A stretch of 64,000 nt of DNA from Patescibacteria group bacterium (GCA_043800905.1 JAZDMO010000007.1:1627-65626); one strand, 5' to 3'; shown: positions 3,786 through 64,000, numbered from the stretch's first letter. A program made the numbers and translations. The notes: generated from the letters alone by a model not told the origin.

Positions 3786-4469
3786 ATGAGCAATAAATAT
3801 TCTATTCTCTTAAAAGATTTAAGACTTAAAAAAGGTTTAACTCAAAAGGAATTAGCTAAAAAATTAGGAATTTCTCGTCCTTCCTATATTGCTATCGAGC
3901 AAGGGAAGAGAGACATCACCCTGAATGAATTTGAAAAATTGTCAGGTGTTTTGAGTGTGTCTTTTGATGATTTTGAGAGAGGGGAATTGCCTGATTATGA
4001 AAAATATAAACAAATGATTTTAACCTTTTTGAGAATGAGTGATGGAATAACCAAAACTAAGTTAGCTAAGTTGGTGTATCTTTCTGATTTTGCTTGGTTT
4101 TATTTTAATTTAAAAAGCATGAGTGGAATGCCTTATAGGAAGATTCAATACGGTCCTGTTCCTGATGCTTACTTTAGAGCTATTGATGAATTAGAAAATA
4201 GTGGAAAAATTTTAATTAATTGTAAACAGAAAGATGATAAAGAAATGTTTATTATTTCTGAATCAGAGAGCAATAAAAACCAAAAGTTAGATTCCATTTT
4301 GAAAGATGAGGTTGATTTAATGAAAAATATTTTTAAAAAGTGGAAAAATAAAAAGACAGCAGAAATTGTTAATTTTACCCATAATCAATTGCCGTATTTA
4401 ATCGCAGAAGATGAAGAGATTATTTCTTATGGCCTTATAACTCAAGAAAATCCAGATGAAATCTATTAA
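3786..4469 (+). CDS. XRE-family HTH fused to a Panacea/DUF4065 (SocA/PanA-like) domain; antitoxin-like
   Basis: N-terminal LKKGLTQKELAKKLGISRPSYIAIEQGKRDITLNEFEKL is a Cro/C1-type HTH. The C-terminal ITKTKLAKLVYLSDFAWFY...YGPVPD resembles the DUF4065/Panacea antitoxin domain. It overlaps the next ORF by 14 bp. Confidence 0.55.
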   Translation: MSNKYSILLKDLRLKKGLTQKELAKKLGISRPSYIAIEQGKRDITLNEFEKLSGVLSVSFDDFERGELPDYEKYKQMILTFLRMSDGITKTKLAKLVYLSDFAWFYFNLKSMSGMPYRKIQYGPVPDAYFRAIDELENSGKILINCKQKDDKEMFIISESESNKNQKLDSILKDEVDLMKNIFKKWKNKKTAEIVNFTHNQLPYLIAEDEEIISYGLITQENPDEIY

Positions 4470-10917: not shown

Positions 10918-12639
10918 ATGGGTTTTACAGATATTTTAATAAAGAAAAATATCATTTCTGCTTCTCAGCTAGCAGAGTTTCAAAAAGAAGTTGACTCCTC
11001 TAAAGATTTAGAGGAAGTTTTGGTTGAAAAAAATATTTCTCGTGAAGAAATAAATAAAGCCAAAGAAGAATATTATAATCTTCCCGTTAAAGATTTAAAT
11101 GTTGATAATTTTAATTATAAGGCTTTAAAATATGTTCCAGAAAAATCCGCGGTTCATTATGAATTTATTCCTTTGGGAGTTAAGGATGGTTTTTTAGAGG
11201 TGGGTATTGTTGATCCATCTAATATTGAAGCGAGAGATGCCATTGAATTTATTTCCTCAAAAGTTAAATTGCCTTTTAAACTTTTTTTGATTTCCAAGGC
11301 TAATTTTAGAATTGCTTTAGATGGCTATAAAGGTTTGCGAGGAGAAGTTTCTCAAGCTTTAACAGAACTAGAGTTGGAACTTAACGAAGAAGAAGAAAAG
11401 ATTAGTAACGCTGTTTCTAAAATAAAAAAAGGACATTCTGATTATGATGCTACGATTACTGAAGACGCACCAGTAACTAAGATTGTGGCAACTATTTTGA
11501 GATATGCTTCTGAGGGAGAAGCTTCTGATGTTCATATTGAACCTTCGGCAGAAAAAGTTCGAGTACGTTTTCGTGTTGATGGAATTTTGGATACTCATCT
11601 AGTTTTACCAACCAAAGTTCATGGGGCGGTGGTAGCTAGAATAAAAATTTTATCTCAGATGCGTTTGGATGAAAAAAGAAAACCGCAAGATGGAAGATTT
11701 TCTGCCAAAATAGATAGTCATAAAGTTGATTTTCGTGTTTCTACTTTTCCTACTTACTATGGAGAAAAAGTAGTTATGCGTCTTCTTGAAGCGGATAAAG
11801 GAGCAGGGCGATTGGAAGAAACTGGTTTGAGTGATAGTCATTTGAAAATTATTAAAAGATGTATTCAAAGACCGCATGGTTTAATTTTAATTTCTGGTCC
11901 GACTGGTTCAGGAAAAAGTACCACTTTATATTCTATTTTGAGTGAAATTGATCGTTTAAGTAAAAATGTGTTATCTCTGGAAGATCCTGTTGAAAGAAAT
12001 GTTGAAGGGGTTAGTCAGTCACAGGTGCGAGCTGAGATTGGTTACACTTTTGCTAGTGGATTAAGAACTATTTTGCGACAAGACCCAGATGTTATCATGG
12101 TGGGAGAGATTCGAGATAAGGAAACAGCTGGTTTGGCTATTCAAGCTGCCTTAACTGGTCACTTAGTTTTTTCGACCATTCACACCAATGACGCAGTGGG
12201 GGTAATTCCTCGTTTAATTGAAATGGATGTGGATCCTTATTTGATTGCCCCAACTCTTATTTTAGCTATGGCACAAAGACTAACTCGTCGTTTGTCTGAA
12301 GGCTCTGGCAAACCTTTACCAATAGAGGGGAGTATTAAGATGATGATAGATAAGGCTTTTGAAAGTTTGCCTCAAGAATTTAGAAAAGATATTGTTTTTC
12401 CAGAAAATGTTTATGAAGCTAGTCCGACTAAAGATAACCCTACTGGATTAAAGGGGAGAATTGGTGTTTATGAGTTGATTGAAATGGATAGAGATATTGA
12501 AGAAACTATTTTAAAAAACCCAGACAGTATGGATTTGGAAACTTTAGTTCGTCAGAAAGGAATGATTACCATGAAACAAGATGCTTTGATTAAGGCTTTT
12601 AATAAAATTATCCCTTTTGAAGAAGCTAATAAACTTTAA
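10918..12639 (+). CDS. pilB: type IV pilus assembly ATPase PilB (GspE family)
   Basis: Walker A GPTGSGKSTTLYS, Asp box, His box TIHTNDAVG. The N-terminal GSPII-like domain is typical of PilB. Confidence 0.85.
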   Translation: MGFTDILIKKNIISASQLAEFQKEVDSSKDLEEVLVEKNISREEINKAKEEYYNLPVKDLNVDNFNYKALKYVPEKSAVHYEFIPLGVKDGFLEVGIVDPSNIEARDAIEFISSKVKLPFKLFLISKANFRIALDGYKGLRGEVSQALTELELELNEEEEKISNAVSKIKKGHSDYDATITEDAPVTKIVATILRYASEGEASDVHIEPSAEKVRVRFRVDGILDTHLVLPTKVHGAVVARIKILSQMRLDEKRKPQDGRFSAKIDSHKVDFRVSTFPTYYGEKVVMRLLEADKGAGRLEETGLSDSHLKIIKRCIQRPHGLILISGPTGSGKSTTLYSILSEIDRLSKNVLSLEDPVERNVEGVSQSQVRAEIGYTFASGLRTILRQDPDVIMVGEIRDKETAGLAIQAALTGHLVFSTIHTNDAVGVIPRLIEMDVDPYLIAPTLILAMAQRLTRRLSEGSGKPLPIEGSIKMMIDKAFESLPQEFRKDIVFPENVYEASPTKDNPTGLKGRIGVYELIEMDRDIEETILKNPDSMDLETLVRQKGMITMKQDALIKAFNKIIPFEEANKL

Positions 12640-12679
12640 AAATTTAGGGATCGTTTAATAAATTATGTTTCTTTTTGTG

Positions 12680-12712
12680 AAGGATTTTGCAGAGCAAAAT
12701 CCTTCCGTTTGT
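12680..12712 (+). terminator. intrinsic terminator after pilB
   Basis: Hairpin gaaggattttgc-agag-caaaatccttc followed by a T-run. Confidence 0.5.
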
Positions 12713-12754
12713 TTTATTTATTATTACTAGATTACGAAGTAATTTAGTATTCAT

Positions 12755-12843
12755 CGTCTGTCTGTTCGTCATTACGAGGAAAAAATTAAGGTTCAAAAGT
12801 TTTAAAACTTTTGAACCTTAATTTTTGACGTGGTAATCCAGAA
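12755..12843. repeat. copy of an approx. 90-bp hairpin repeat (cgtcattacgagg..aaggttcaaaagttttaaaacttttgaacctt..gacgtggtaatccag)
   Basis: Near-identical to 19029-19132. The internal hairpin differs from that copy by compensatory changes (ggttc/gaacc here, gcctc/gaggc there). Confidence 0.6.
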
Positions 12844-12859
12844 TTATATATTAAGACTT

Positions 12860-13340
12860 AATGAAAAATTAATCAGGCTGTTTTATAAAATTCTTTCTGG
12901 ATTGCTTCGTCACTCCACTGCGTTCCGTTCCTCGCAATGACGGACGACGAAAAGCAAAACGTCTCTGCGAGATCAGATTTTTTAATAAAAATCTGATCGT
13001 GGCAGTCCAGACTTGTGAAATCACGAAGTGATTTAATTAAAAAACTAAAACCTCACTCGCAAAGACGAAAAACAAAGTTTTTCGTTACGTTTTGCGTTAA
13101 GCAAAACGTCTCTGCGAGGCACGAAGCAGTCCAGTAATAAAGTGTTTTTAGGAGGAGTGAAATAATATGATACTTGTCCGCCTTGCCTGCCCCTGCACGC
13201 CGGCAGGCGGGGGTAGACAGGTTGCTTCGTAAACTCGCAATGATGAATGACGAGATGCTGGGTTGATTTATAGACTTGTAATGATAAGTGAATGGATTTT
13301 TTAAAGTAAGATCCCCCTTCCTAAATTTATTCGCCGTGGC
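12860..13340. mobile_element. composite cluster of nested GC-rich MITE-like modules filling the pilB-pilT intergenic region
   Basis: No ORF. Contains atcaggctg..ctggattgcttcg (an inverted copy of the terminus seen at 16090-16129), cctcgcaatgacg, gtctctgcgag twice, cagtccag, and ccttgcctgcccctgcacgccggcaggcggg (an inverted copy of the 58556/63797 module). Modules recur at 15894, 19029, 25482, 31203, 58337 and 63775. Confidence 0.55.
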
Positions 13341-13461
13341 GGGTGGTGGTGAATTTGCGGGTTTTCCCCAGCAAGAGAATATATTTCTTTTCTGTTTTCT
13401 TGTATAATTATAATTAAGATTTGGGTTTTAAAAAATCCAATAGCTCAATAAATTAAATTTT

Positions 13462-14520
13462 ATGGAAAATAAAACTTTATTAAATGAATTAGTCGCTGAT
13501 GTCATCAAAGAAAATGCTTCTGATATTCACTTATCTGTAAATCAAAACCCGTCTATTCGAATTCATGGGGCTCTTTTTGAACTTAAAAAATATCCCGTGG
13601 TCACTGAAGAAAATTTAATTGGAATTATTGATGAAATTTTAACTCCGTCGTTTAAAGAAAGGTTTTTAAAAGAAAAAGAAATTGATTTTTCTTATGAAAT
13701 TGCCGAAGCACGATTTAGAGGAAGTTGTTTTTTTAGCCAGAAATCTATTTGTATTAGTCTGCGATTAATTCCCAAGGTGGTGGGGACTTTGGATGAACTT
13801 AATTTGCCCCCATCTTTACTTAATTTTACAAGAAAGGAACAAGGATTTTTTTTAGTGGTTGGTCCTATGGGTCATGGTAAATCCACAACCTTAGCATCTA
13901 TGATTGATTCTATAAATAAAGAAAGAACTGAACATATTGTGACCATTGAAGACCCTGTGGAATATGTTTATCTTAAAGATAAATCTCTTATTGATCAGAG
14001 AGAGGTGGGGGTTGATACTAAAGATTTTCCTACCGCTTTGAAATCAGCTTTTAGACAGGATGCTGATGTTATTATGATTGGTGAGATGCGAGGTTTGGAA
14101 ACTATTTCAACGGCTGTCACGGCTGCAGAAACAGGACATTTGGTTTTTTCAACTTTACATACCAATAACGCAGCTCAAACCGTTGATAGGATTATTGATG
14201 CTTTTCCTGCTAATCAACAGGATCAAATTAGAGTGCAGTTAGCAGGGTCGCTTTTGGGAATTTTTTCTCAAAGATTAATTCCTAGAATTTCTGGAGGAGT
14301 AATTCCAGCCTATGAACTACTAATTAATAATAACGCTATTTCTAATTTGATTCGTGAAGGTCGTTCTTTTGAAATTCAAAATGTTATTGAAACTTCTTCT
14401 AATGAAGGTATGGTAAGTTTAAATAGGTCTTTAGCTGAATTGGTTCGCTTAGGTGAGGTTACTATGGAGAATGCTAGAAAATATTCAACTACTGAAGGTG
14501 ATTTGGATAAATTGTTTTAG
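13462..14520 (+). CDS. pilT: twitching-motility/retraction ATPase PilT
   Basis: Walker A GPMGHGKSTTLAS, His box TLHTNNAAQT. Its 352-aa size is typical of PilT, shorter than PilB. Confidence 0.85.
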   Translation: MENKTLLNELVADVIKENASDIHLSVNQNPSIRIHGALFELKKYPVVTEENLIGIIDEILTPSFKERFLKEKEIDFSYEIAEARFRGSCFFSQKSICISLRLIPKVVGTLDELNLPPSLLNFTRKEQGFFLVVGPMGHGKSTTLASMIDSINKERTEHIVTIEDPVEYVYLKDKSLIDQREVGVDTKDFPTALKSAFRQDADVIMIGEMRGLETISTAVTAAETGHLVFSTLHTNNAAQTVDRIIDAFPANQQDQIRVQLAGSLLGIFSQRLIPRISGGVIPAYELLINNNAISNLIREGRSFEIQNVIETSSNEGMVSLNRSLAELVRLGEVTMENARKYSTTEGDLDKLF

Positions 14521-14532
14521 GAAAAAATAATT

Positions 14533-15738
14533 ATGTTATTTAAATATAAAGTTGTTGATAATAAAGGAATAGAAAAAGAAGGAAGTATTGAAGCTACCAG
14601 CGAGGAGGTGGCTATTGCTTCTTTGCAAGATCGAGCCTATGTTATTACTTATATTGCTCCAGTTAAGAATACAAACTTTTTAAATTTTGAATTCACTTTT
14701 TTTCAAAAAGTTTCTAATAAGGATGTTGTTATGTTGTCTAAACAAATGGCAACTTTGTTTGGAGCGCAAGTTTCCGCTTTGAGAATTTTTAGACTATTGG
14801 GAGATGAATCAGAAAACCCAATGTTAAAAAGGGTTTTGAAAAAAGTGGCGGATGATATTCAAGGAGGTAATCCGATTTCTCTGGCTTTATCTAAACACCC
14901 AAAGGTTTTTTCTGAATTTTACGTCAATATGGTTAAGTCGGGTGAGGAAGCGGGAACTTTAAACGATACTTTTGCTTATTTAGCAGAGCATCTTGATAGA
15001 AATTATGACTTGGTTTCAAAAGTAAAAAATGCTTTGATTTATCCTATTTTCGTGGTGATTGTTTTTTTTGTGGTTATGGTTTTGATGTTAACTATGGTTA
15101 TTCCTAAAATTAGCTTGATTTTGTTAGACGCTGGACAGGATTTACCTTTTCTTACTAGGGTAGTTATCGGAATTAGTAATTTTTTTGTTAATTACGGTAT
15201 TTTTTTGTTAGTGGCAGTTATCGTTGGTATTTTTATGTTTATTCGTTTTTCCAGAACTCAAGCGGGGAAAATGTCCATCGGTCGTTTTTCTCTAGCCGTT
15301 CCTTATATAGGAGACTTGTATAAAAAAATGTATTTAGCAAGAATTGCTGGAAATATGCAAACCATGTTGGCGAGCGGGGTTTCTATTGTTAAAGCTGTAG
15401 AAACCACGGCTGATGTAGTCGATAGTGTTATTTATCGTGAAATTTTGGAAAAAGCTGCTCAATCAATTAAAACAGGAATTTCTGTTTCTGGAGCTTTGAG
15501 TGGTTATGATGAGGTTCCTAATATCATGGTGCAAATGATTAAGATTGGAGAGGAAACAGGAGAATTAAGTAATATTTTAAGTACTCTTTCTCGTTTCTAT
15601 GAAAGAGAAGTTAACGGAGCGGTTGATATGTTAGTTGGAATGATTGAACCAGCGATGATTGTTTTTCTTGGCTTGGGAGTAGGGGGATTGATGGCAGCAG
15701 TGTTGATGCCAATTTACAATATCTCTTCAGCGATTTAA
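14533..15738 (+). CDS. pilC: type IV pilus inner-membrane platform protein PilC (GspF family)
   Basis: Two GspF-like repeats with TM segments. Approx. 400 aa, directly downstream of pilT. Confidence 0.8.
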   Translation: MLFKYKVVDNKGIEKEGSIEATSEEVAIASLQDRAYVITYIAPVKNTNFLNFEFTFFQKVSNKDVVMLSKQMATLFGAQVSALRIFRLLGDESENPMLKRVLKKVADDIQGGNPISLALSKHPKVFSEFYVNMVKSGEEAGTLNDTFAYLAEHLDRNYDLVSKVKNALIYPIFVVIVFFVVMVLMLTMVIPKISLILLDAGQDLPFLTRVVIGISNFFVNYGIFLLVAVIVGIFMFIRFSRTQAGKMSIGRFSLAVPYIGDLYKKMYLARIAGNMQTMLASGVSIVKAVETTADVVDSVIYREILEKAAQSIKTGISVSGALSGYDEVPNIMVQMIKIGEETGELSNILSTLSRFYEREVNGAVDMLVGMIEPAMIVFLGLGVGGLMAAVLMPIYNISSAI

Positions 15739-15800
15739 ACAGTTTTCAACTTTCAATTATCAGTTTTCATTAAATTTTCAATTGATAAATTATCAGTGAC

Positions 15801-16429
15801 ATGACCTATAATTTAGAGGAAAGAACCGCTAAATACTCTGAAAATGTTATTTCTTTGATTAAAAGTGTCAAAATAAGGCTTAATGAAAAAAATATCAGGC
15901 TGAAAATGATAAACTAGCTAGTCTTAATATTATTTAAAATGATTTTTAATTAAAAACTTAAATATTTAAATTATAAAGAATTTAATTGTTTTAAAAATTT
16001 CTAGACTGCTTCGCAAGCTCGCAGAGACGAATGATTTCATCGTCCATTCGTTATTGCGAGGAATAAGATGCAGAGAAACAGAATCTTATGACGAAGCAAT
16101 CCAGAAAGAATTTCATAAAATAGCCTGATTAATTTACTATTAAGCTCAAAATAACATTGTTAAACAAAAACATAGTTGAACAATTATCAAAATCAGCCAC
16201 AAGTATCGGGGTTAACTATCATGAAACGAATAACGCTAGTTCTAAGAAAGATTTTATAAATAAGATTTATTTTTGTAAAAAAGAGGCTAACGAAACAAGA
16301 TATTGGTTAGATTTATTAAATAAAAATGAAATAAAGTTTACAGAAGATATTGGTTTATTGAAAAAAGAGAATCAAGAACTAGTCATGATTTTCCAGAAAA
16401 TAATCAATACTTCAAACAACAAACATTGA
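15801..16429 (+). pseudogene. four-helix-bundle protein (23S-rRNA-IVS-protein family) gene, split into an N-fragment (15801-15920) and a C-fragment (16157-16429) by an inserted repeat element
   Basis: The N-fragment translation MTYNLEERTAKYSENVISLIKSVKIRLNEKNI... matches the family N-terminus and ends at a stop inside the inserted element. The C-fragment QLSKSATSIGVNYHETNNASSKKDFINKIYFCKKEANETRYWLDLL matches the family C-terminal half. Confidence 0.5.
15894..16129. mobile_element. 236-bp MITE-like element with 8-bp terminal inverted repeats (atcaggct/agcctgat), inserted into the four-helix-bundle gene
   Basis: Termini atcaggct (15894) and agcctgat (16122). Inside are ctcgcagagacg, cgttattgcgagg and gacgaagcaatccag modules. 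The same terminus plus adjoining approx. 35 bp occurs inverted at 12872-12906. Confidence 0.5.
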
Positions 16430-16574
16430 AAATTGAGAATTGTAAACTGAAAATTGTTTTGATTTATCCCCAGAAAGACTTTCTTTTCTTTGCTTTTTGG
16501 GAGTATAATCAAATAAACGCAAATTATATTTGTTATTAATTATTAGTTATTAATTTAATATTATTAAAAATAAT

Positions 16575-17069
16575 ATGAAGAAATTTATGAAAAAGGATAC
16601 AAAAGGTTTTTCTCTTATCGAACTTTTGATTGTGGTTGCGATCATGGGAATTCTATCCGCCGTTGTTTTAAGTTCTTTGGGAACTGCTCGACAAAAAGCG
16701 AGAGATGCTAGAAGAATTTCAGACGTAAAGGATGCCGCTAAGATTTTAGTTATTGCTTCTGATGTGGGAGGAATAAATATTTCAGGTTGTACCACCGCTA
16801 ACGTAGCTTTGAATACTTGTGGAGATGGAACTGATCAATTTATGGATTTAAGAAGTTATTCTGACCCATCAACAGCAACAGCTGTTTGTAGCGGTACAAC
16901 AACTGAAGGTCCTTGTGAATATGGTATTGCAAATATAGATGGAGACGCAAGAGCAACTACAGAAGATTACCAAATTTGTTTTTATCTTGAATATGGAGCA
17001 GGAGATCTTTCTTCTGGTTTAAATTCAGTTGTGGGTCCAATTGGAAACTTGGTAGCTGGTTGTAATTAA
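16575..17069 (+). CDS. type IV (major) pilin, paralog A
   Basis: Class III signal KKDTKG|FSLIELLIVVAIMGILSAVV with Glu at +5. Cys-rich C-terminal domain. The 5' flank and both ends are nearly identical to the gene at 18408. Confidence 0.75.
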   Translation: MKKFMKKDTKGFSLIELLIVVAIMGILSAVVLSSLGTARQKARDARRISDVKDAAKILVIASDVGGINISGCTTANVALNTCGDGTDQFMDLRSYSDPSTATAVCSGTTTEGPCEYGIANIDGDARATTEDYQICFYLEYGAGDLSSGLNSVVGPIGNLVAGCN

Positions 17070-17077
17070 TCTAAATT

Positions 17078-17500
17078 TTGATGATGTTTAATAAACAAAA
17101 TCAAATTGAAAAAGTAGAAACTCTGGGATGTTTAAAAACATCTCGGGGTTTTTCTTTGGTGGAATTGTTAGTATCTATTGCGATCATTGGTATTTTATCT
17201 TCCATTGTTTTAGTTTCTTTAGGAAGTGCTAGAGAAAAGGCCCGTTTAAGTAGAGTTCAAAGTCAAATGACCGCCTTACATCCTCATTTAATAATGTGTA
17301 TTAATGATGGAGTTTCTGTTGACTTTTCTTCTTCTGCTCCTACAGTTGGGGCATCTTTATGTTCTAGTACTAATGTTAATTTTCCAGAATTACCAGCGGG
17401 ATGGTCTTATGTTGTTAGTCCGGTTGGAAGTTATAGGGCTTCAGGAGAAGGGTATCAGGTTAATTGTACAGAAACTGGTTGTGTAACAACTACCCCTTAA
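17078..17500 (+). CDS. type IV pilin-like protein
   Basis: The prepilin motif SRG|FSLVELLVSIAIIGILSSIVLVSL lies after an approx. 20-aa leader. 140 aa. Confidence 0.6.
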   Translation: MMMFNKQNQIEKVETLGCLKTSRGFSLVELLVSIAIIGILSSIVLVSLGSAREKARLSRVQSQMTALHPHLIMCINDGVSVDFSSSAPTVGASLCSSTNVNFPELPAGWSYVVSPVGSYRASGEGYQVNCTETGCVTTTP

Positions 17501-18198
17501 TTATGTTTTTTAATTTTATAAAAAAAGAAAAGCAAGGTTTTCTAGAATATCAGACGGGGTTTACCCCATCAGAAATTTTTATGAAGATATTTGGTGATAT
17601 AAAGAAAAAAATAAGCAGTTTTTTAAAAAATGAAAAGCAAGGTTTTCTAGAATATCAGACGGGGTTTACCCCGTCAGGAATTTTTAATAGTTTGTTATCT
17701 ATAATAAGAAACAAAATGAAAAAAAATCTTTTTAATAAAAAACAAGATTCTTTGAAATTCCAATCGGGGTTTACTTTAACTGAACTTTTGGTGGCTATCG
17801 CGATTATTGGAATTTTATCTTCCATTGTTTTAACTTCAATGAGTGGGGCGAGAGAAAGGGCTAAGGATGGAAAAAGAATTTCTGATATTAAACAAATTCA
17901 GTTAGCTTTAGAATTATATTACGATGTAAATTCTGCTTATCCTGTAGATAATGGTTCTCAAAATATTTTGTATAACGATCCTAAACCTTTAACTAATTTT
18001 TTAAAAATTTCTCAAGACCCCGATGGAACTAATTACCATTATTGGAGTACGGGACAAGATTATCACCTAGGAGCTGTCTTACAACAAACAAATAATGCTT
18101 TAGATGACGACGATGATGCTACTGGTGGTTTTGAAGGTTCTAGTTCTGATTGTGGTTCTGTGACCGGAACAGATTTTTGTTACGATGTAACTCCTTAA
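17464..18198 (+). CDS. type IV pilin preceded by two tandem degenerate prepilin-leader cassettes; the functional start is probably the ATG at 17716
   Basis: The ORF contains two copies of an approx. 107-bp unit encoding KEKQGFLEYQTGFTPSEIF (17527-17580 and 17633-17687). These are followed by a canonical prepilin MKKNLFNKKQDSLKFQSG|FTLTELLVAIAIIGILSSIVL. Confidence 0.6.
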   Translation: MYRNWLCNNYPLIMFFNFIKKEKQGFLEYQTGFTPSEIFMKIFGDIKKKISSFLKNEKQGFLEYQTGFTPSGIFNSLLSIIRNKMKKNLFNKKQDSLKFQSGFTLTELLVAIAIIGILSSIVLTSMSGARERAKDGKRISDIKQIQLALELYYDVNSAYPVDNGSQNILYNDPKPLTNFLKISQDPDGTNYHYWSTGQDYHLGAVLQQTNNALDDDDDATGGFEGSSSDCGSVTGTDFCYDVTP

Positions 18199-18246: not shown

Positions 18247-18407
18247 AGAGTTATAAAAAGTAATCATTGTTTTGTTTAATTATTAATTATATTATTTAAA
18301 TGGGATAATTTTTAATCCTTTTAATTGAAGGTATTGTTTAATCAAATAGACACAAATTACATTTGTTATTAATTATTAGTTATTAATTTAATATTATTAA
18401 AAATAAG

Positions 18408-18917
18408 ATGAAGAAATTTATGAAAAAGGATATAAAAGGTTTTTCCCTTATTGAACTTTTGATTGTGGTTGCAATCATGGGAATTCTATCTGCTGTTGTT
18501 TTGAGTTCTCTAGGAACCGCTCGTCAAAAAGCAAGAGACGCTAGAAGAATTTCAGACGTAAAGGATGCCGCTAAGATTTTAGTTATTGCTTCTGATGTGG
18601 GAGGGGTGAGCATCTCAGGTTGTGGTTCTCCTGATGTCGCCTTAAAAACTTGTGGAGACCCTGATATTGAAAATGATCCTTTTATGGATTTAAGAAGTTA
18701 TTCTGACCCTTCTGTTTCTGAAGAAGTTTGTTCAAGTGGAAGAATTATTGCCGACGGTCCCTGTGAGTACGGAATATCTGATATGACTGGTGATGAAGCG
18801 CCCACCACAGAAGATTACCAAATCTGTTTTTTCCTTGAATATGGAGCGGGAGATCTTTCCGCTGGCCTAAATTCTGTTGTGGGTCCAATTGGAAACTTGG
18901 TAGCTGGTTGTAACTAA
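18408..18917 (+). CDS. type IV (major) pilin, paralog B
   Basis: The first approx. 60 aa and last approx. 35 aa are nearly identical to the gene at 16575. The central approx. 70 aa diverge. 78 bp of upstream sequence is conserved with 16497-16574. Confidence 0.75.
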   Translation: MKKFMKKDIKGFSLIELLIVVAIMGILSAVVLSSLGTARQKARDARRISDVKDAAKILVIASDVGGVSISGCGSPDVALKTCGDPDIENDPFMDLRSYSDPSVSEEVCSSGRIIADGPCEYGISDMTGDEAPTTEDYQICFFLEYGAGDLSAGLNSVVGPIGNLVAGCN

Positions 18918-18984
18918 ATTAATTTTTTAAGAAATTTAAGGTTTTTAATAACATAAATAATTATTATTTTCTTCTATTATTTAC

Positions 18985-19028: not shown

Positions 19029-19132
19029 CTCGCAATGACGGTCCGCTTAGGGCGGACCGTCATTGCGAGGAAAAAATTAAGCCTCAAAAGTTTTAAAACT
19101 TTTGAGGCTTAATTTTTGACGTGGCAATCCAG
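19029..19132. repeat. palindromic repeat element (ctcgcaatgacggtccgc..gcggaccgtcattgcgagg + aagcctcaaaagttttaaaacttttgaggctt + gacgtggcaatccag)
   Basis: Two perfect hairpins in series. Same family as 12755-12843 and 31203-31302. Confidence 0.6.
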
Positions 19133-20651: not shown

Positions 20652-21371
20652 ATGAAAATATTAAAACAAAAATTAAAAAGAATTAATTCTCTAGAATATC
20701 AGATGGGGTTTATCCTGTCAGTAATTTTTAAAAATATGATTAATTTTTTAAAAAACAAAACGACTAAAATATTCAAAGATAAAAAAGAGGGTTCTTTGAA
20801 ATTTCAAACAGGGTTTACATTGGTGGAAATGATTACAGCTGTAGCAATTTTTGCTTTGGTGATGGTTGTGGCTATGGGTTCTTTATTGAATGTCCTATCT
20901 GCTAATAGACAAAGCCAAGCAATTCAAACCGCAGTGAATAACCTTAATCTTGCAATGGAAACCATGTCTCGTGAGATTAGAACAGGTTACAATTATCATT
21001 GTGGTTCCTGTTTTGGGTCAGATTGTACTACTGATAATGACTGCCCCGCAGGTGATTCTTCTATTGCCTTTGAACCTTATAATGGGAATCCCTCTTCTTA
21101 TAGTGATCAAGTAATTTTTATGTTTGATCAGGATAATCAACAGATTCTAAAATCGACTAACAACGGAGATGATTATTTAGGATTAACTTCTCCTGAATTA
21201 CATGTGGAAGATTTGACTTTTATTGTAGTCGGTTCGGATCCTAGTGATACTAGACATCCTAAGGTCTTAATTACCGCTAGCGGTTATGTTCAAAGCGATT
21301 CTAATACTCAAACTTCTTTTAACTTACAAACAACAGTTTCTCAAAGGTTAATTGATTTTGATTTATGGTAA
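20652..21371 (+). CDS. pseudopilin with one upstream degenerate leader cassette; probable true start at the ATG at 20736
   Basis: Upstream cassette NSLEYQMGFILSVIF, then MINFLKNKTTKIFKDKKEGSLKFQTG|FTLVEMITAVAIFALVMVV. Confidence 0.55.
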   Translation: MKILKQKLKRINSLEYQMGFILSVIFKNMINFLKNKTTKIFKDKKEGSLKFQTGFTLVEMITAVAIFALVMVVAMGSLLNVLSANRQSQAIQTAVNNLNLAMETMSREIRTGYNYHCGSCFGSDCTTDNDCPAGDSSIAFEPYNGNPSSYSDQVIFMFDQDNQQILKSTNNGDDYLGLTSPELHVEDLTFIVVGSDPSDTRHPKVLITASGYVQSDSNTQTSFNLQTTVSQRLIDFDLW

Positions 21372-22219
21372 AAATAATGAATTTAAAAAATAAAAAACAA
21401 GATTCTTTGAAATTCCAATCGGGGTTTACCCCGTCAGAAATTTTTAGTAGTTTGCTATCTATAATAAGAAACAAAATGAAAAAAAATCTTTTTAATAAAA
21501 AACAAGATTCTTTGAAATATCAGACGGGGTTTACCCCATCAGAAATTTTTATAAAGATATTTGGTAATATAAAGAAAAAAATAAGCAGGTTTTTAAAAAA
21601 TGAAAAGCAAGGTTTTGTAGAATATCAGACGGGGTTTACCCTGTCAGTAATTTTTAAAAATATGATTAATTTTTTAAAAAACAAAACGACTAAAATATTC
21701 AAAGATAAAAAAGTGGGTTCTTTGAAATTTCAAACAGGGTTTACCCTGATAGAAACTTTTGTGGCTGTTACGGTTTTGTTGATTGCCATCACCGGTCCTT
21801 TGTATTTAGTAGCAAAAGGTTTGTCAGTTTCTAAATCTGCTAAAAATCAGGTGACAGCTATGTATTTGGCTCAAGAAGCTGTTGAATATATTCGAAATAT
21901 TCGAGATGAAAATATTTTAAAAGGTCAGGATTGGCTGACTGGTTTAGATTATTGTTTAAATGGTAGTAAGTGTGCTATTGATTCGCCTCAAGAAGAAATC
22001 CTCTTGTGTTCGGGAGTTTGTAATTTTTTGAAATATGATGAAGATAAATATCTTTATACCTATTCCAGCGGGACAGCTAGTCCTTTTCGTCGAGAAATTA
22101 GTCTTTTACCTATTGGCAACACTGGGACAGAGGTAGAAATTTTAGTTGATATGTATTGGAATGATGGACCAAATCAAAAAGATTTTGAGGTTAGAGAACA
22201 TTTGTTGAATTGGCAATAA
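21365..22219 (+). CDS. pseudopilin whose 5' region is a mosaic of four prepilin-leader cassettes
   Basis: Encoded cassettes: KKQDSLKFQSGFTPSEIF, KKQDSLKYQTGFTPSEIF, KQGFVEYQTGFTLSVIF, and finally VGSLKFQTG|FTLIETFVAVTVLLIAITG. DNA blocks are near-identical to 17583-17680, 17700-17760 and 20736-20820. Confidence 0.55.
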   Translation: MVKIMNLKNKKQDSLKFQSGFTPSEIFSSLLSIIRNKMKKNLFNKKQDSLKYQTGFTPSEIFIKIFGNIKKKISRFLKNEKQGFVEYQTGFTLSVIFKNMINFLKNKTTKIFKDKKVGSLKFQTGFTLIETFVAVTVLLIAITGPLYLVAKGLSVSKSAKNQVTAMYLAQEAVEYIRNIRDENILKGQDWLTGLDYCLNGSKCAIDSPQEEILLCSGVCNFLKYDEDKYLYTYSSGTASPFRREISLLPIGNTGTEVEILVDMYWNDGPNQKDFEVREHLLNWQ

Positions 22220-25465: not shown

Positions 25466-25481
25466 CATATTTTTCAAATGT

Positions 25482-25618
25482 TGGATTGCCACGATTAAAT
25501 TTTTATTAAAAAATTTAATCTCGCAAAGACGGATTTTGCAAAGCAAAATTCGTTAGGAAAATCAAAGATTTTCGTCTTTGCGAGGAGTGAAGTGAAACGG
25601 AACGACGAAGCAATCCAG
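25482..25618. repeat. MITE-like element with ctggattgcc / gcaatccag ends between gatC and gatA
   Basis: Termini ggattgcc (25483-25490) and gcaatccag (25610-25618). Interior palindrome ctcgcaaagacg...cgtctttgcgag. The tracked gatA ORF start at 25592 lies inside it, so the real start is probably downstream. Confidence 0.55.
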
Positions 25619-25642
25619 TATAAAAATAAATTAAATACAATT

Positions 25643-27070
25643 ATGAAAATAGACTTACAAAACTTAACAATCAAAAAAGCGCATGAGGCCATGAAAGCTG
25701 GCGAATATACGGCTCAAGATTTAGCTCAAGCTTATTTAGACAATATTGATGAAAGTCTAAATGCTTTCCTTGTGGTTTTTGATGATGTTTTAGAACAAGC
25801 TAAAAAAGCGGATGAAAAATTTAAAGATGGAACAGCCGAGTTATTGACAGGAATCCCGATGGCAATTAAAAATAATATTTTGATTGAAGGGAAAAAAACC
25901 ACAGCTGGTTCAAAAATTTTAGAAAATTATCGTGCCACTTATGATGCTACTGTCATTAAAAAATTAAAAAGAGCGGGAGTGGTATTTATTGGCGGAACTA
26001 ACTTAGATGAATTTGCTATGGGTTCTTCCACAGAAAATTCAGCTTTTGGTGTGGTAAAAAATCCTTATGACATTACACGAGTTCCGGGAGGTTCTTCGGG
26101 TGGATCAGCAGTGGCAGTCGCAGCTAATATGGCTTTAGTAGCTTTAGGAACTGATACGGGTGGTTCTATTCGTCAGCCAGCTGGTTTTACTGGTCTTTAT
26201 GGTTTAAAGACTACCTACGGACGAGTTTCTCGTTATGGAGCGATTGCTATGGGATCTTCTTTGGATCAAATAGGACCTTTTGCTAAAAATATTGATGATT
26301 TAAAAATTGTTTATGATTGTATTAAAGGTGAAGACAAAAATGACAGCACCTCATTGTCTAAAAGAATAATAGAAAAAGAAGAAATAAAAATTGATTTAGC
26401 TAAAATTAAAACTATCGGAGTGCCAATGTCATTTTTGGAAGGAGTGGATGAAGATGTCAAAAAAAACTTTGAAAAATCAGTGGAAAAATTAAAAACTCTT
26501 GGTTACGAAATTAAGAATATAGATTTGCCAAATGTGAATCATATTTTGGCTGTTTATTATATAGTGATGTTTGCAGAGGTTTCTACTAACTTAGCGCGTT
26601 TTGACGGGGTGCGTTATGGTTTGCATGTGGAAGGAGAAAATCTTTTAGAGAATTACAAAAAAACTAAAGGACAGGGTTTTGGAAAGGAGGTGCGTCGCAG
26701 AATTATGTTGGGAACCTATATTTTATCGGCAGGTTATAAAGATGCTTATTACAAAAAAGCTCAAGCCTTGAGAGAACTAATTAAAAGAGATTTTAAAAAA
26801 GCTTTTGAAGGAGTAGGCGCTATAATAACTCCGACTTCACCTACTCCGGCTTTTAAAATTGGAGAAAAAGCGAGTGACCCTTTGCAAATGTATTTAGCTG
26901 ATGTATTTACTGTGCCTGCAAACGTGGTTGGTATTCCAGCAATTTCTGTACCAGAAGGAGAAGTAGAGCGAGATGGAAAAAAATTACCGACTGGCTTATT
27001 GGTGAGTGCTCCTTATTTGCATGAAAATGTTTTATTTAAGATAAGCGAAGACTTACAAAATATTTCTTAA
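25643..27070 (+). CDS. gatA: glutamyl-tRNA(Gln)/aspartyl-tRNA(Asn) amidotransferase subunit A (amidase signature family)
   Basis: Amidase signature GGSSGGSAVAVAAN with a Ser-cisSer-Lys arrangement. Start placed at ATG 25643 (MKIDLQNL), in frame with the tracked ORF and outside the repeat element. Confidence 0.9.
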   Translation: MKIDLQNLTIKKAHEAMKAGEYTAQDLAQAYLDNIDESLNAFLVVFDDVLEQAKKADEKFKDGTAELLTGIPMAIKNNILIEGKKTTAGSKILENYRATYDATVIKKLKRAGVVFIGGTNLDEFAMGSSTENSAFGVVKNPYDITRVPGGSSGGSAVAVAANMALVALGTDTGGSIRQPAGFTGLYGLKTTYGRVSRYGAIAMGSSLDQIGPFAKNIDDLKIVYDCIKGEDKNDSTSLSKRIIEKEEIKIDLAKIKTIGVPMSFLEGVDEDVKKNFEKSVEKLKTLGYEIKNIDLPNVNHILAVYYIVMFAEVSTNLARFDGVRYGLHVEGENLLENYKKTKGQGFGKEVRRRIMLGTYILSAGYKDAYYKKAQALRELIKRDFKKAFEGVGAIITPTSPTPAFKIGEKASDPLQMYLADVFTVPANVVGIPAISVPEGEVERDGKKLPTGLLVSAPYLHENVLFKISEDLQNIS

Positions 27071-31202: not shown

Positions 31203-31302
31203 GTGACGGTCGCCGAAGGCGACCGTCATTGCGAAATATTTTTAGAGAATTTTTTTGAAAAAATTTTTCAAAAAAATTCTCTAAAAATATTGTGGCAATC
31301 CA
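31203..31302. repeat. palindromic repeat element (gtgacggtcgccgaaggcgaccgtcattgcg + long AT palindrome + gtggcaatccag)
   Basis: gacggtcgccgaaggcgaccgtc hairpin; tagagaatttttttgaaaaaatttttcaaaaaaattctcta palindrome; family terminus gcaatccag. Confidence 0.55.
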
Positions 31303-31404
31303 GAAAAAACTCTTAAATTTTAAACGGCTCAACCTGTTGAGCCGTTTAACAAGGCTATATTGCTTGTTATTTTATGAAAGAAAGTTATTTTTAAAAATTC
31401 ACAC

Positions 31405-39120: not shown

Positions 39121-40203
39121 ATGAAATTATTAATCGTAACGCAAAAAGTAGATAAGAATGATGATGTACTCGGTTTTATGCACGGGTGGATTTCTGAATT
39201 TGCAAAACATTGTGAAAAGGTGACAGTAATTGCTTTAGGTGTGGGTGAATATGATTTACCTCGAAATGTAAAAGTCTTATCCTTGGGAAAGAATAATTTG
39301 TTATTGCGAGGAGTGAAGCGAAGCGGAACGACGTGGCAATCCAGCAACAAAAGTCGTAAAAAATATATTTTTAATTTTTATAAATATATCTGGCAGGAGC
39401 GAAAAAATTACGATAATGTGTTTGTTCACATGAACCCCGAATACGTGGTTCTAGGGTCAATTTTATGGCGATTTTGGGGTAAAAGGGTGGGACTTTGGTA
39501 CACACATAAGGCTGTTAATTTAAAGTTAAGGATAGCTGAGAAAATGGCTAATTTGGTGTTCTCGGCTAGTTCAGAATCTTTTGGTTTAAAAAGCAAAAAA
39601 CTTCATATTACGGGTCATGGAATTAATTTAGAACAGCTTAAAATTAAGAAAGATAAAATTCAAAATGAGATTTTCAAAATGATTTTAGTCGGAAGGATTG
39701 CTCCCATAAAAAATCAAGACATCTTGATTAAATCGGCGGTAATTTTAAAAAATAAATATCTGGATTTTAAATTTAAAATTGATTTAATTGGTGGGGCTGA
39801 TTCATATGTTCAAAGAGAATATAAAGTGCTTCTTGAAAGTTTGGTTAAAACAAATAATTTAGAAAATGAAATTAGTTTCGTTTCTCCTGTCGCTAATAAA
39901 GAAATCAATGCTATTTATGAAAAAGCGAATTTAAGTTTAAATTTGTGTCCCACAGGAGGAGCTGACAAAGTGGTTTTGGAATCAATGGCTTGTGAATTGC
40001 CTGTTATAGTTTTTAATAAAACCTTTGAGAATATTTTACCCGAAGAATTAATTTTAGAAAAATTAGAACCAGAACTTTTAGCAGAAAAAATTTATGAAAT
40101 TTCTCAGAAGAAAAATTTGAATTTTGGATTAAGAGAAAGGGTTGAAAAAAGTCATAATTTGAAAAAATTAATCATTAAGATTTTAAATTTATATTATGCT
40201 TAA
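39121..40203 (+). CDS. GT-B glycosyltransferase (GT4-like) carrying an in-frame repeat-element fragment
   Basis: GT-B C-domain features (CPTGGADKVVLESMACELPVIVF). 39301-39344 ttattgcgaggagtgaagcgaagcggaacgacgtggcaatccag is a family half-element, translated as LLRGVKRSGTTWQSS. Confidence 0.5.
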   Translation: MKLLIVTQKVDKNDDVLGFMHGWISEFAKHCEKVTVIALGVGEYDLPRNVKVLSLGKNNLLLRGVKRSGTTWQSSNKSRKKYIFNFYKYIWQERKNYDNVFVHMNPEYVVLGSILWRFWGKRVGLWYTHKAVNLKLRIAEKMANLVFSASSESFGLKSKKLHITGHGINLEQLKIKKDKIQNEIFKMILVGRIAPIKNQDILIKSAVILKNKYLDFKFKIDLIGGADSYVQREYKVLLESLVKTNNLENEISFVSPVANKEINAIYEKANLSLNLCPTGGADKVVLESMACELPVIVFNKTFENILPEELILEKLEPELLAEKIYEISQKKNLNFGLRERVEKSHNLKKLIIKILNLYYA

Positions 40204-58336: not shown

Positions 58337-58641
58337 TTCGCAATGATATTTATTTACTGGATTGCCACACCGAGCGCCAAAAACTTTAATTAAAGTTTTT
58401 GGTGCTCGGCTCGCAATGACGAACGAACGGATGTTGGACCTGCCTGCCGGCAGGCAGGTTGCCATGATATCGCTCGCAATGACGAGATGCTGGGTTGCTT
58501 CGTAAACTCGCAATGACGAACTGACGAATAAACACTGGATTCCTCCCAAGCCTACCTGCCCCCGCCTGCCGGCGTGCAAGGGCAGGCAGGGCGGACAAAT
58601 GCCACAGAATTTTTTAAAACAAAAAATTCTTCGCAATGACG
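58337..58641. mobile_element. approx. 300-bp cluster of nested GC-rich repeat modules
   Basis: Contains ctggattgcc, ctcgcaatgacg three times, the 20-bp palindrome 58439-58458, gacgagatgctgggttgcttcgtaaactcgcaatgacg (inverted at 13215-13260), and tggattcctcccaagcctacctgcccccgcctgccggcgtgcaagggcaggcagggcgg (copy at 63775-63835). The ORFs tracked here on the minus strand are translations of the repeats. Confidence 0.6.
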
Positions 58642-63774: not shown

Positions 63775-63965
63775 GGATTCCACCCAAGCCTACCTGCCCC
63801 CGCCTGCCGGCGTGCAGGGGCAGGCAAGGCGGACAGGTGCCACACAAGGTTTTTTGATTTTTCTTCAAAAATCAAAAAACTGTATAATTATGACGACCGT
63901 CATAATTATACAGTTTGTTTTTTTTGCTAGACCTGTCTACTGGCAGGCAGGCTTGGGTGGAATTC
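63775..63965. mobile_element. approx. 190-bp MITE-like element with approx. 25-bp terminal inverted repeats and nested internal palindromes; further family modules run to the window end
   Basis: Left end ggattccacccaagcctacctgcc, right end ggcaggcaggcttgggtggaattcc. Internal cctgccggcgtgcaggggcaggc, the hairpin ttgatttttcttcaaaaatcaa, and the perfect 16-bp-arm palindrome ctgtataattatgacg-a-ccgtcataattatacag (63880-63913). Confidence 0.6.
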
Positions 63966-64000
63966 CGCCTCTAACCGTCTCTGCGAGCTTGCGAAGCAGT

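Follow-up and report, generated by a model that had tools for sequence, protein, structure and literature searches.

A probable IS256-derived MITE in a split four-helix-bundle gene of a Patescibacteria bacterium

Two short ORFs follow one another in a 64-kb stretch of Patescibacteria DNA (the whole of the sequence analysed here, hereafter the window; 31% GC). Are they the remains of a single gene and, if so, what DNA came between them, where does that DNA begin and end, and how did it arrive? The original prediction had joined the two ORFs into one four-helix-bundle protein and attributed their separation to a repeat element bounded by 8-bp inverted repeats. We examined the gene, the ends of the insert, its relatives and the hairpin modules that it carries.

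The split gene and its setting

The ORFs stand in a row of type IV pilus genes, every one of which is on the + strand. Roles of the neighbours are likely ones, read from the ORF translations rather than from a family search.

10918-12639, + strand: pilB-like ORF
13462-14520, + strand: pilT-like ORF
14533-15738, + strand: pilC-like ORF
from 16575, + strand: pilin-like genes

The gap between pilC and the first pilin gene measures 836 bp and contains both short ORFs; the four-helix-bundle gene is a stand-alone cassette with pilC on one side and a pilin gene on the other. Its parts are given below, the two ORFs as they appear in the ORF list.

15801-15917, + strand: N-terminal ORF, 38 aa plus stop
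16157-16429, + strand: C-terminal ORF, 90 aa, TTG start
15801-15876, + strand: N-terminal part of the gene (codons 1-25 and the first base of codon 26), encoding helix 1
16155-16429, + strand: C-terminal part of the gene (rest of codon 26 to the stop), encoding helices 2-4

The two ORFs are halves of one gene of the TIGR02436/PF05635 four-helix-bundle family. By itself the C-terminal fragment matches TIGR02436 with 69.1 bits (cutoff 24; profile positions 26-108 of 109) and PF05635 with 53.1 bits (cutoff 33.8; positions 30-102 of 106), and the 38-aa N-terminal fragment by itself has no family match in the profile search. The C-terminal ORF had been predicted exactly as found. The N-terminal piece had been put at 39 codons (15801-15920); an ORF is indeed present, but it comprises 38 aa plus stop, ends at 15917 and belongs to the gene only in part. 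From 15877 onwards (RLNEKNIRLKMIN, 15877-15917) it is translated MITE sequence, since the standing ORF continues through 13 MITE-encoded codons to a TAG at 15915-15917.

Excision of 15877-16154 (278 bp, the element plus one duplicate of its target site) yields an open ORF of 116 aa that begins MTYNLEERTAKYSENVISLIKSVKITLLNKNIVEQLSK...; the expected intact junction, with 15876 joined to 16155, reads ...GTCAAAATAACATTG.... The restored protein matches TIGR02436 with 72.9 bits, its residues 7-112 lying on profile positions 3-108 of 109 with no indels, and its N-terminal YNLEERTAKYSENVISLIKSVK agrees with the homologue consensus YNLEERTAKFGENIIxLCKSIK. The best intact homologues among 5.8 billion proteins searched are 113-147 aa long and 48-60% identical at 90-99% query coverage; those with a source name come from Patescibacteria/CPR lineages. 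Aligned to 18 intact Patescibacteria homologues (52-59% identity), the restored protein is gap-free across the junction, and none of the 18 (0/18) carries an insert at the split position. These results bear out the predicted splitting of one gene by a repeat element, the collinearity of its fragments with intact TIGR02436 members and the lack of an insert in aligned homologues. Both gene halves are stop-free. At 19 of the 25 columns that are unanimous among the 18 intact homologues the window protein has the same residue; this is a hand count, as the invariant-column list of the alignment tool contains the window sequence and is hence uninformative on retention.

An AlphaFold2 model of the restored protein (pLDDT 93.4) has helices at residues 5-22, 30-50, 56-83 and 85-114, which would place the insertion, at codons 23-26, in the predicted loop between helices 1 and 2. 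The nearest solved structures in Foldseek are BT_0352 (2RLD; 32% identity, TM about 0.8), Xcc0516 (2GSC) and the DGR protein Avd (4DWL). With the 23S rRNA intervening-sequence protein / Avd family (PF05635, TIGR02436) the restored protein thus shares full-length similarity in sequence and fold, as well as inverted repeats that bracket the gene; unlike the genes for 23S rRNA intervening-sequence proteins, the window gene lies outside any rRNA gene and is split. A DGR context, with the four-helix protein acting as Avd, was considered and rejected for the surroundings of the gene: among ORFs of 150 aa or more from 1 to 34.7 kb, a span that includes both flanks of the split gene, none contains a reverse-transcriptase YxDD motif.

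The bracketing repeats are a separate observation. Long-range inverted repeats of AATTTTCAATT-like units enclose the four-helix-bundle ORF both here and in three homologous loci; in the window the inverted-repeat search placed their arms as follows.

15739-15769, + strand: upstream arm of the long-range inverted repeat bracketing the four-helix-bundle ORF
16425-16456, + strand: downstream arm of the same repeat

The bracket duplex has z = -2.9 in the window versus -4.2 to -9.7 around the three homologues. The inverted repeats that bracket the window's ORF resemble the stem of an rRNA intervening sequence.

As it stands, the gene is not intact and translatable: it is split by 270 bp, its N-terminal piece stops early and its C-terminal piece is without helix 1 and the original start. 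With the start codon and helix 1 both gone from the C-terminal piece, inactivation of the gene is the most likely outcome; judged by the model, a fragment without helix 1 should be unable to form the bundle. A scan for consensus promoters found nothing that exceeds shuffled sequences. A near-identical protein is already public (99% identical, 90 aa, annotated by NCBI as 'four helix bundle protein' and derived from a 'Patescibacteria group bacterium' MAG), and for annotation this means that the entry describes the 3' part of a transposon-disrupted gene. The collections searched contained no empty-site allele or close intact orthologue, the best intact homologue being 59% identical; look-ups by exact sequence with PilC, the C-terminal fragment and the 99%-identical protein gave no entry.

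Ends of the insert and choice of the junction

The insert, a putative MITE, has the following anatomy.

15877-16146, + strand: MITE, 270 bp, 27% GC, non-coding
15877-15901, + strand: left terminal inverted repeat, GGCTTAATGAAAAAAATATCAGGCT, aligned to the left ends of the relatives L115, L120, L029, L132 and L126
16122-16146, - strand: right terminal inverted repeat, reverse complement AGCTTAATAGTAAATTAATCAGGCT, from the alignment to relatives
15869-15876, no strand: left copy of the target-site duplication, CAAAATAA, an exact match to the right copy and abutting the terminal inverted repeat
16147-16154, no strand: right copy of the target-site duplication, CAAAATAA, an exact match to the left copy and abutting the terminal inverted repeat

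The terminal inverted repeats are about 25 nt long and imperfect, of the form GGCTTAAT...ATCAGGCT; the inverted-repeat search paired 15878-15901 (GCTTAATGAAAAAAATATCAGGCT) with 16122-16145 (AGCCTGATTAATTTACTATTAAGC) over 24 nt at 75% complementarity. The 8-mers that had been proposed as the boundaries, atcaggct (15894-15901) and agcctgat (16122-16129), are present and do enclose 236 bp, but they are not the ends of the element: they form the inner core of the longer 24-nt inverted repeat. On its own this 8-nt pair is not beyond chance, the window holding 694 inverted 8-nt pairs at a spacing of 150-300 nt (about 330-410 in shuffles).

A look for a target-site duplication had been recommended with the original prediction, and an exact one, CAAAATAA, directly abuts the terminal inverted repeats. 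It can also be read as a 9-nt direct repeat, TCAAAATAA, exact at 15868-15876 and 16146-16154, which shortens to 8 nt if base 16146 is assigned to the element. Family-type ends (GGCTTAAT...ATTAAGCN) give an element of 270 bp (15877-16146) and an 8-mer duplication; the choice between 8 and 9 bp is ambiguous because the right terminus ends in AGCT, versus GGCC-type ends in the family. Among random site pairs, 0.07% are flanked by an exact 9-nt repeat, even when 25 offset combinations are allowed.

Other ways of joining the halves were compared. Excision of the 236 bp between the outer edges of the 8-mers (15894-16129) was rejected: it leaves ...NEKN*FTIK..., that is, an in-frame TAA and 10 extra codons, with no direct repeat at the junctions. 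Removing only the DNA from inverted repeat to inverted repeat gives 119 aa and retains a duplicated KI. A hand-built 120-aa join that keeps both duplicates (...KIR+LKITLL...) was discarded, scoring lower on TIGR02436 at 67.9 bits. If the halves are instead joined through the MITE-encoded LNEKNI, the protein is as long as that of the duplication-based join and reaches 75.1 bits against 72.9; this variant was set aside since its boundaries disregard the insertion-sequence ends and since the LN-K of the chosen join is closer to the I-N-K of the homologues. With 75.1 bits for the one and 72.9 for the other, HMM scores cannot decide the junction; it is the inverted repeats, the duplication and the alignment of homologues that together make 15876/16155 the probable point of rejoining. 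The MITE-encoded RLNEKNIRLKMIN resembles the displaced TLLNKNI, a likeness that misled the earlier join.

The insert has stops in all six frames and no ORF, and shows no similarity to the family transposase in tblastn. Folding of its single-stranded form gives a long hairpin (z = -4.9). Its left 125 bp have 16% GC and are mostly derived from an insertion sequence, the derived sequence running to about 15950. The insert had been described as filled with modules of a repeat family; two such units do lie inside it, but they account for only about 85 of the 270 bp. The element had no blastn match among plasmids and phages, and its left end had none in a scan of viral contigs.

Relatives of the element and course of the insertion

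Relatives were sought by their ends. A scan of genome contigs with a terminus pattern of 17 fixed bases gave 6 real relatives among the 80 matches listed, the rest being mostly chance, and the real ones are Patescibacteria and Saccharibacteria loci; a metagenome scan with a 20-mer across the inner inverted repeat gave five real relatives. The following two are full-length, as is L027 described further below.

L115, 1959-2988: full-length insertion sequence, 1030 bp, with near-perfect copies of the MITE's ends (GGCTTAATGGTAAATTAATCAGGCT)
L120, 305-1334: full-length insertion sequence, 1030 bp, with near-perfect copies of the MITE's ends (GGCTTAATGGTAAATTAATCAGGCT)

Alignment of the MITE with the insertion sequence extends across 70-85 nt at the MITE's left end and 30-40 nt at its right. 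Both insertion sequences have a single ORF with QPD as its last codons and the stop inside the right inverted repeat, and the right-end segment of the window element is the transposase C-terminus (...QPD*) in the parent insertion sequence. The transposase matches NF048019, 'IS256 family transposase, variant Zn-binding type', at E 1.3e-93 with 313.6 bits (cutoff 150) over positions 2-301 of 304, and thus covers the model of this variant, which is near the IS1249 group, end to end; the IS1249 model itself stays below its cutoff (122 vs 300 bits). There is also a match to the IS1/IS1595-type N-terminal Zn-binding domain, and Pfam gives weak zinc-ribbon matches only. A tblastn search of the 64-kb window found no gene for an NF048019-type transposase, and a literature search gave nothing useful on the Zn-variant IS256 group. 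In three diverged copies the Zn-finger transposase frame is without a canonical in-frame start, and in each of the three an ATG in another frame stands just upstream of an A6-7 run.

Among the remaining relatives, L027 (1041 bp, from a Saccharibacteria MAG) encodes a transposase that is 46% identical, has a like terminus type and is flanked on both sides by GAAAATTC, an 8-bp duplication. L062, a deletion derivative of 221 bp, is likewise flanked on both sides by an 8-bp duplication, GTTTTTTA, and keeps 29 aa of the N-terminal transposase sequence; in L080 a C-terminal remnant is left. A clean duplication is absent at L029, L115 and L120, three of the six complete relatives. IS256 elements as defined by ISfinder have GG termini and target-site duplications of 8-9 bp. 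The GG termini and 8-bp duplications of the relatives fit this definition. The differences from IS256 are that the window element has no transposase, that the parent measures about 1.03 kb rather than the typical 1.2-1.5 kb and that the parent's Zn-finger ORF has no canonical in-frame start.

Because it shares the ends of these insertion sequences, has stops in all frames, is without similarity to the transposase and forms a long hairpin, the 270-bp insert is best read as a MITE, whose parent would be an IS256-family insertion sequence of the Zn-binding variant of about 1.03 kb. The group can be defined by termini of the form GGCTTAAT-N3-AAA-N3-ATCAGGCT, a length of about 1.03 kb and an 8-bp duplication, as a clade of the IS256 Zn-variant together with its MITE derivatives; termini, size and duplication length are usable for masking or annotating such elements.

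The MITE is not alone. A homologue of 378 bp, L029, lies in another Patescibacteria MAG and is identical in L110. It and the window MITE share 154 nt on the left and 57 nt on the right, each at 84% identity; about 70 nt of the left-hand stretch have no counterpart in the insertion sequence. Inside L029, a spacer separates a '-' module from a '+' module, after which come a 17-nt segment and the right inverted repeat; this plan matches that of the window MITE. A further copy is in the window itself.

12855-13010, - strand: truncated second MITE copy with a right-type terminus, the 17-nt subterminal segment and a module pair; no left end

Read in the opposite direction, this copy follows the MITE's right 130-150 nt collinearly, and no partner terminus for it was found in the window. 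Recurrence of the right terminus in inverted form had been noted for about 35 bp at 12872-12906; it is real and extends further, to 56 nt at 91% identity (12857-12912 vs 16089-16144, inverted); an alignment of 47 nt at 96% identity was also obtained for this copy. The 64 kb thus hold one complete and one truncated MITE copy, with homologous copies in another MAG. Since its architecture is common to L029 and to 12855-13010, it predates the insertion in the window.

How, then, was the gene split? We consider it very probable that a 270-bp MITE derived from IS256 inserted into the four-helix-bundle gene and carried the modules along as passengers. The original prediction saw the mobile unit as the 236-bp stretch with 8-nt atcaggct/agcctgat ends, built of modules that themselves act as insertion elements. 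The 8-mers are there and inverted, two modules lie between them and the right terminus recurs at 12857-12912; however, excision of this unit leaves the TAA and the 10 extra codons and its junctions are without duplication, 8-nt inverted pairs are common at such a spacing (the 694 of the window), the 8-mers sit within longer inverted repeats that are common to transposase-encoding insertion sequences, and other module units of the window are without these termini, so that this course of events appears very improbable. An insertion sequence could also have landed in full and decayed in place by internal deletion and gain of modules, as the transposase remnants in the 221-bp L062 (29 aa) and in L080 (C-terminal) might suggest. 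The window element has no such remnant, though, and its interior that is not from the insertion sequence, an AT-rich segment and a two-module pair, is common to L029 and 12855-13010; decay at this site therefore has little to recommend it and we give it only a slight chance.

Explanations without a transposition event fare worse still. Were the insert a conserved intron-like, recoding or regulatory feature with the gene expressed intact, undamaged halves and a stable hairpin (z = -4.9) would be natural. Against this, Rfam gave only tRNAs above gathering thresholds over the window and nothing credible at E<=10 in 12600-16600, the insert is absent at the split position from the aligned homologues, and the inverted repeats, duplication and insertion-sequence homology explain it fully; the probability of such a feature is close to nil. 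Nor do we see more than a vanishing chance for an assembly or binning artefact, a chimeric join induced by repeats in a metagenome-assembled contig: the window does come from a MAG and the region is repeat-rich, but a mis-join has no reason to give an exact duplication around matched inverted repeats, or to restore a gap-free family member in frame. The insertion is genuine and cleanly resolved, a mechanistically ordinary disruption of a gene by a mobile element.

For the insertion of the MITE itself, established knowledge of IS256 and other DDE elements suggests the likely steps. As the insert has no ORF, it would have been moved in trans: a transposase encoded elsewhere would bind the terminal inverted repeats and insert the element at a target site whose two strands are cut 8 bp apart; filling of the gaps would then give the CAAAATAA duplication. 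The exactness of this duplication, the stop-free gene halves and the retention of 19 of the 25 residues unanimous among homologues point to a recent insertion. Exact duplication and undamaged halves would then speak for recent activity of a DDE transposon in a streamlined Patescibacteria genome.

Bacterial MITEs that stem from DDE insertion sequences include Correia/NEMIS in Neisseria and RUP in Streptococcus pneumoniae. The window MITE resembles them in being small, non-coding, hairpin-forming and able to land in genes, and in having the terminal inverted repeats of an autonomous insertion sequence and a target-site duplication of fixed length; it differs in its probable IS256 Zn-binding-variant parent, its Patescibacteria host and the REP-like hairpin pair inside. 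In a full-text literature search no paper dealt with MITEs of CPR genomes; the one match named both but was about DGRs. With Rickettsia palindromic elements (RPE) the MITE shares the occurrence of palindromic repeats within protein-coding genes, but whereas RPEs are in frame and translated within the host protein, the MITE is closed by stops in all frames and cuts the protein short.

Hairpin modules in the interior

Two module units form an inverted ('-+') pair inside the MITE.

16001-16029, - strand: module unit with shell CGTCTCTGCGAG..CGAAGCAGTC and a minimal core CTTG (regular expression and fold)
16049-16104, + strand: module unit of the form CGTTATTGCGAGG-core-GACGAAGCAATCCAG (regular expression and inverted repeats)

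The unit at 16001-16029 is identical in 25/25 positions to 63976-64000, and the one at 16049-16104 has collinear counterparts at 12897-12942 and in the L029 MITE. In all, the window holds 13 units of the form CGTC[AT][TC]TGCGAG-core-CG[AT][AG]GCA[AG]TCCAG, 11 of them outside the MITE, with cores of 4 to about 55 nt that are usually perfect palindromes. Three '-+' doublets of units occur in the window. Insertion-sequence termini bound the unit in the truncated copy but no other outside unit. Since other copies in the window are without insertion-sequence ends, the modules are cargo. That the repeats should act as insertion elements in their own right is therefore not borne out; on the sequence evidence the mobile unit appears to be set by the IS256-family ends, with the modules as passengers and not the agent of insertion. 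To keep insertion-sequence ends apart from the hairpin modules that they carry matters to any later study of the module family.

At homologous module positions, different MITE copies have entirely different palindromic cores. Compensatory changes occur in the stems (ATTGC/GCAAT to ATTAC/GTAAT; GCCTC/GAGGC to GGTTC/GAACC). REP/REPIN elements, which are mobilized by RAYT (Y1/HUH) transposases, share such compensatory changes with the modules, and like them are short intergenic hairpins with conserved feet and inverted doublets around a short spacer; in contrast to REPs, which are species-specific, the modules have a shell that spans contigs of 30-73% GC, and their cores vary highly in length. 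No RAYT-like gene was matched by tblastn in the window or in 113 module-bearing IMG/VR loci (see below), a search of low sensitivity with an E. coli RAYT sequence as query. The module 12-mers had no relevant match in the literature.

We speculate, with considerable reserve, that the MITE is a chimeric vehicle in which IS256-type ends have captured a hairpin pair, perhaps from an undescribed, phylum-crossing family of mobile hairpins; on balance we think this unlikely. Behind this reading are the exact recurrence of the shell in contigs of widely different GC content, the unlike cores at homologous positions and the compensatory stem changes. If it were true, the hairpins would have one means of spreading by riding along on a DDE transposon, and the shell might be a site of core exchange or growth.

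The four-helix-bundle gene shows no association with the modules in IMG/VR, none being found near the module doublets of the loci there. The 25-nt module shell (CGTCATTGCGAG..core..CGAAGCAATCCAG) is exact in 113 IMG/VR contigs, at loci of 30-73% GC, and for the most part in doublets that resemble REPINs. These loci contain 95 '+-' doublets; adjacent units are nearly always '+-', most often with a spacer of 15-18 nt.

The split four-helix-bundle gene and its inverted repeats

Public annotation lists the 90-aa C-fragment (16157-16429, database protein P0001) as an intact 'four helix bundle protein', but it is the 3' part of the gene disrupted by the MITE (the IS256-derived non-autonomous element). 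Four-helix-bundle ORFs of Patescibacteria, in the window and at three homologous loci (L138, L139 and L141), are flanked on both sides by long-range inverted repeats of AATTTTCAATT-like units.

Inverted-repeat brackets around four-helix-bundle ORFs
Window, 15739-15769 with 16425-16456: duplex z = -2.9
L138, around 260-616: duplex z = -9.7
L139, around 2501-2866: duplex z = -4.9
L141, around 2501-2857: duplex z = -4.2

The bracketing repeats would place the ORF inside one long stem, an arrangement resembling that of 23S rRNA intervening sequences, where an ORF likewise lies within a long stem. The bracket suggests that the four-helix-bundle ORF is a self-contained cassette.

The hairpin module family

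Each module consists of a conserved shell, CGTCATTGCGAG..core..CGAAGCAATCCAG, around a palindromic and highly variable core; base changes in the stems are compensatory.

Module sites in the window: 12767-13134, 16001-16104, 19058-19132, 25481-25618, 31224-31303, 39299-39344, 58357-58518 and 63976-64000

Exact matches to the 25-nt shell were found in 113 IMG/VR contigs (loci L142-L254); the GC content of these loci ranges from 30 to 73%. The modules there are mostly '+-' doublets, most commonly with a spacer of 15-18 nt, and in this resemble REPINs. The doublets of the window are '-+'. The family is absent from Rfam, its 12-mers did not occur in the papers searched, and a low-sensitivity test found no RAYT in the window or in the 113 loci.

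The mechanical ORF 25592-27070 opens with VKRNDEAIQ, residues that come from translation of a module; judging by the printed translation, the gene probably begins instead at the first in-frame ATG (∼ 25643-25644). Adjoining module units in this 31% GC genome are copies of another hairpin repeat family, CCTACCTGCCCCCGCCTGCCGGCGTGCAGGGGCAGGCAAGGCGGACA, which is GC-rich.

GC-rich hairpin repeats in the window: 13172-13221, 58551-58612 and 63789-63838

The start of the IS256-variant transposase

Three diverged copies of the transposase (L115, L120 and L027, the last from a Saccharibacteria MAG) lack an ATG, GTG or TTG ahead of the zinc finger in its own frame. An ATG lies in another frame, 2-3 codons 5' of an A6-7 (or T5A6) run, and entry into the zinc-finger frame requires a shift of +1 in L115 and L120 and of -1 in L027.

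Transposase start regions
L115: 2036-2060
L120: about 160-190, reverse complement
L027: about 4060-4075, reverse complement

The missing start might be explained by slippage, by use of a non-canonical start codon or by sequencing errors in the homopolymer.

Repeats and duplications in pilin-like genes

Several pilin-like genes carry 105-nt tandem repeats (61-88% identity) within their 5' regions; in the encoded proteins these give a series of KKQDSLKFQSGFTPSEIF-like segments that precede the N-terminal pilin helix. Two pilin-like genes are duplicated together with their upstream regions, ∼ 1.8 kb apart and at 80-89% identity.

Tandem repeats, window: 17526-17807, 20675-20851 and 21391-21800
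Duplication, window: 16503-16802 versus 18336-18635; 16905-17091 versus 18753-18939
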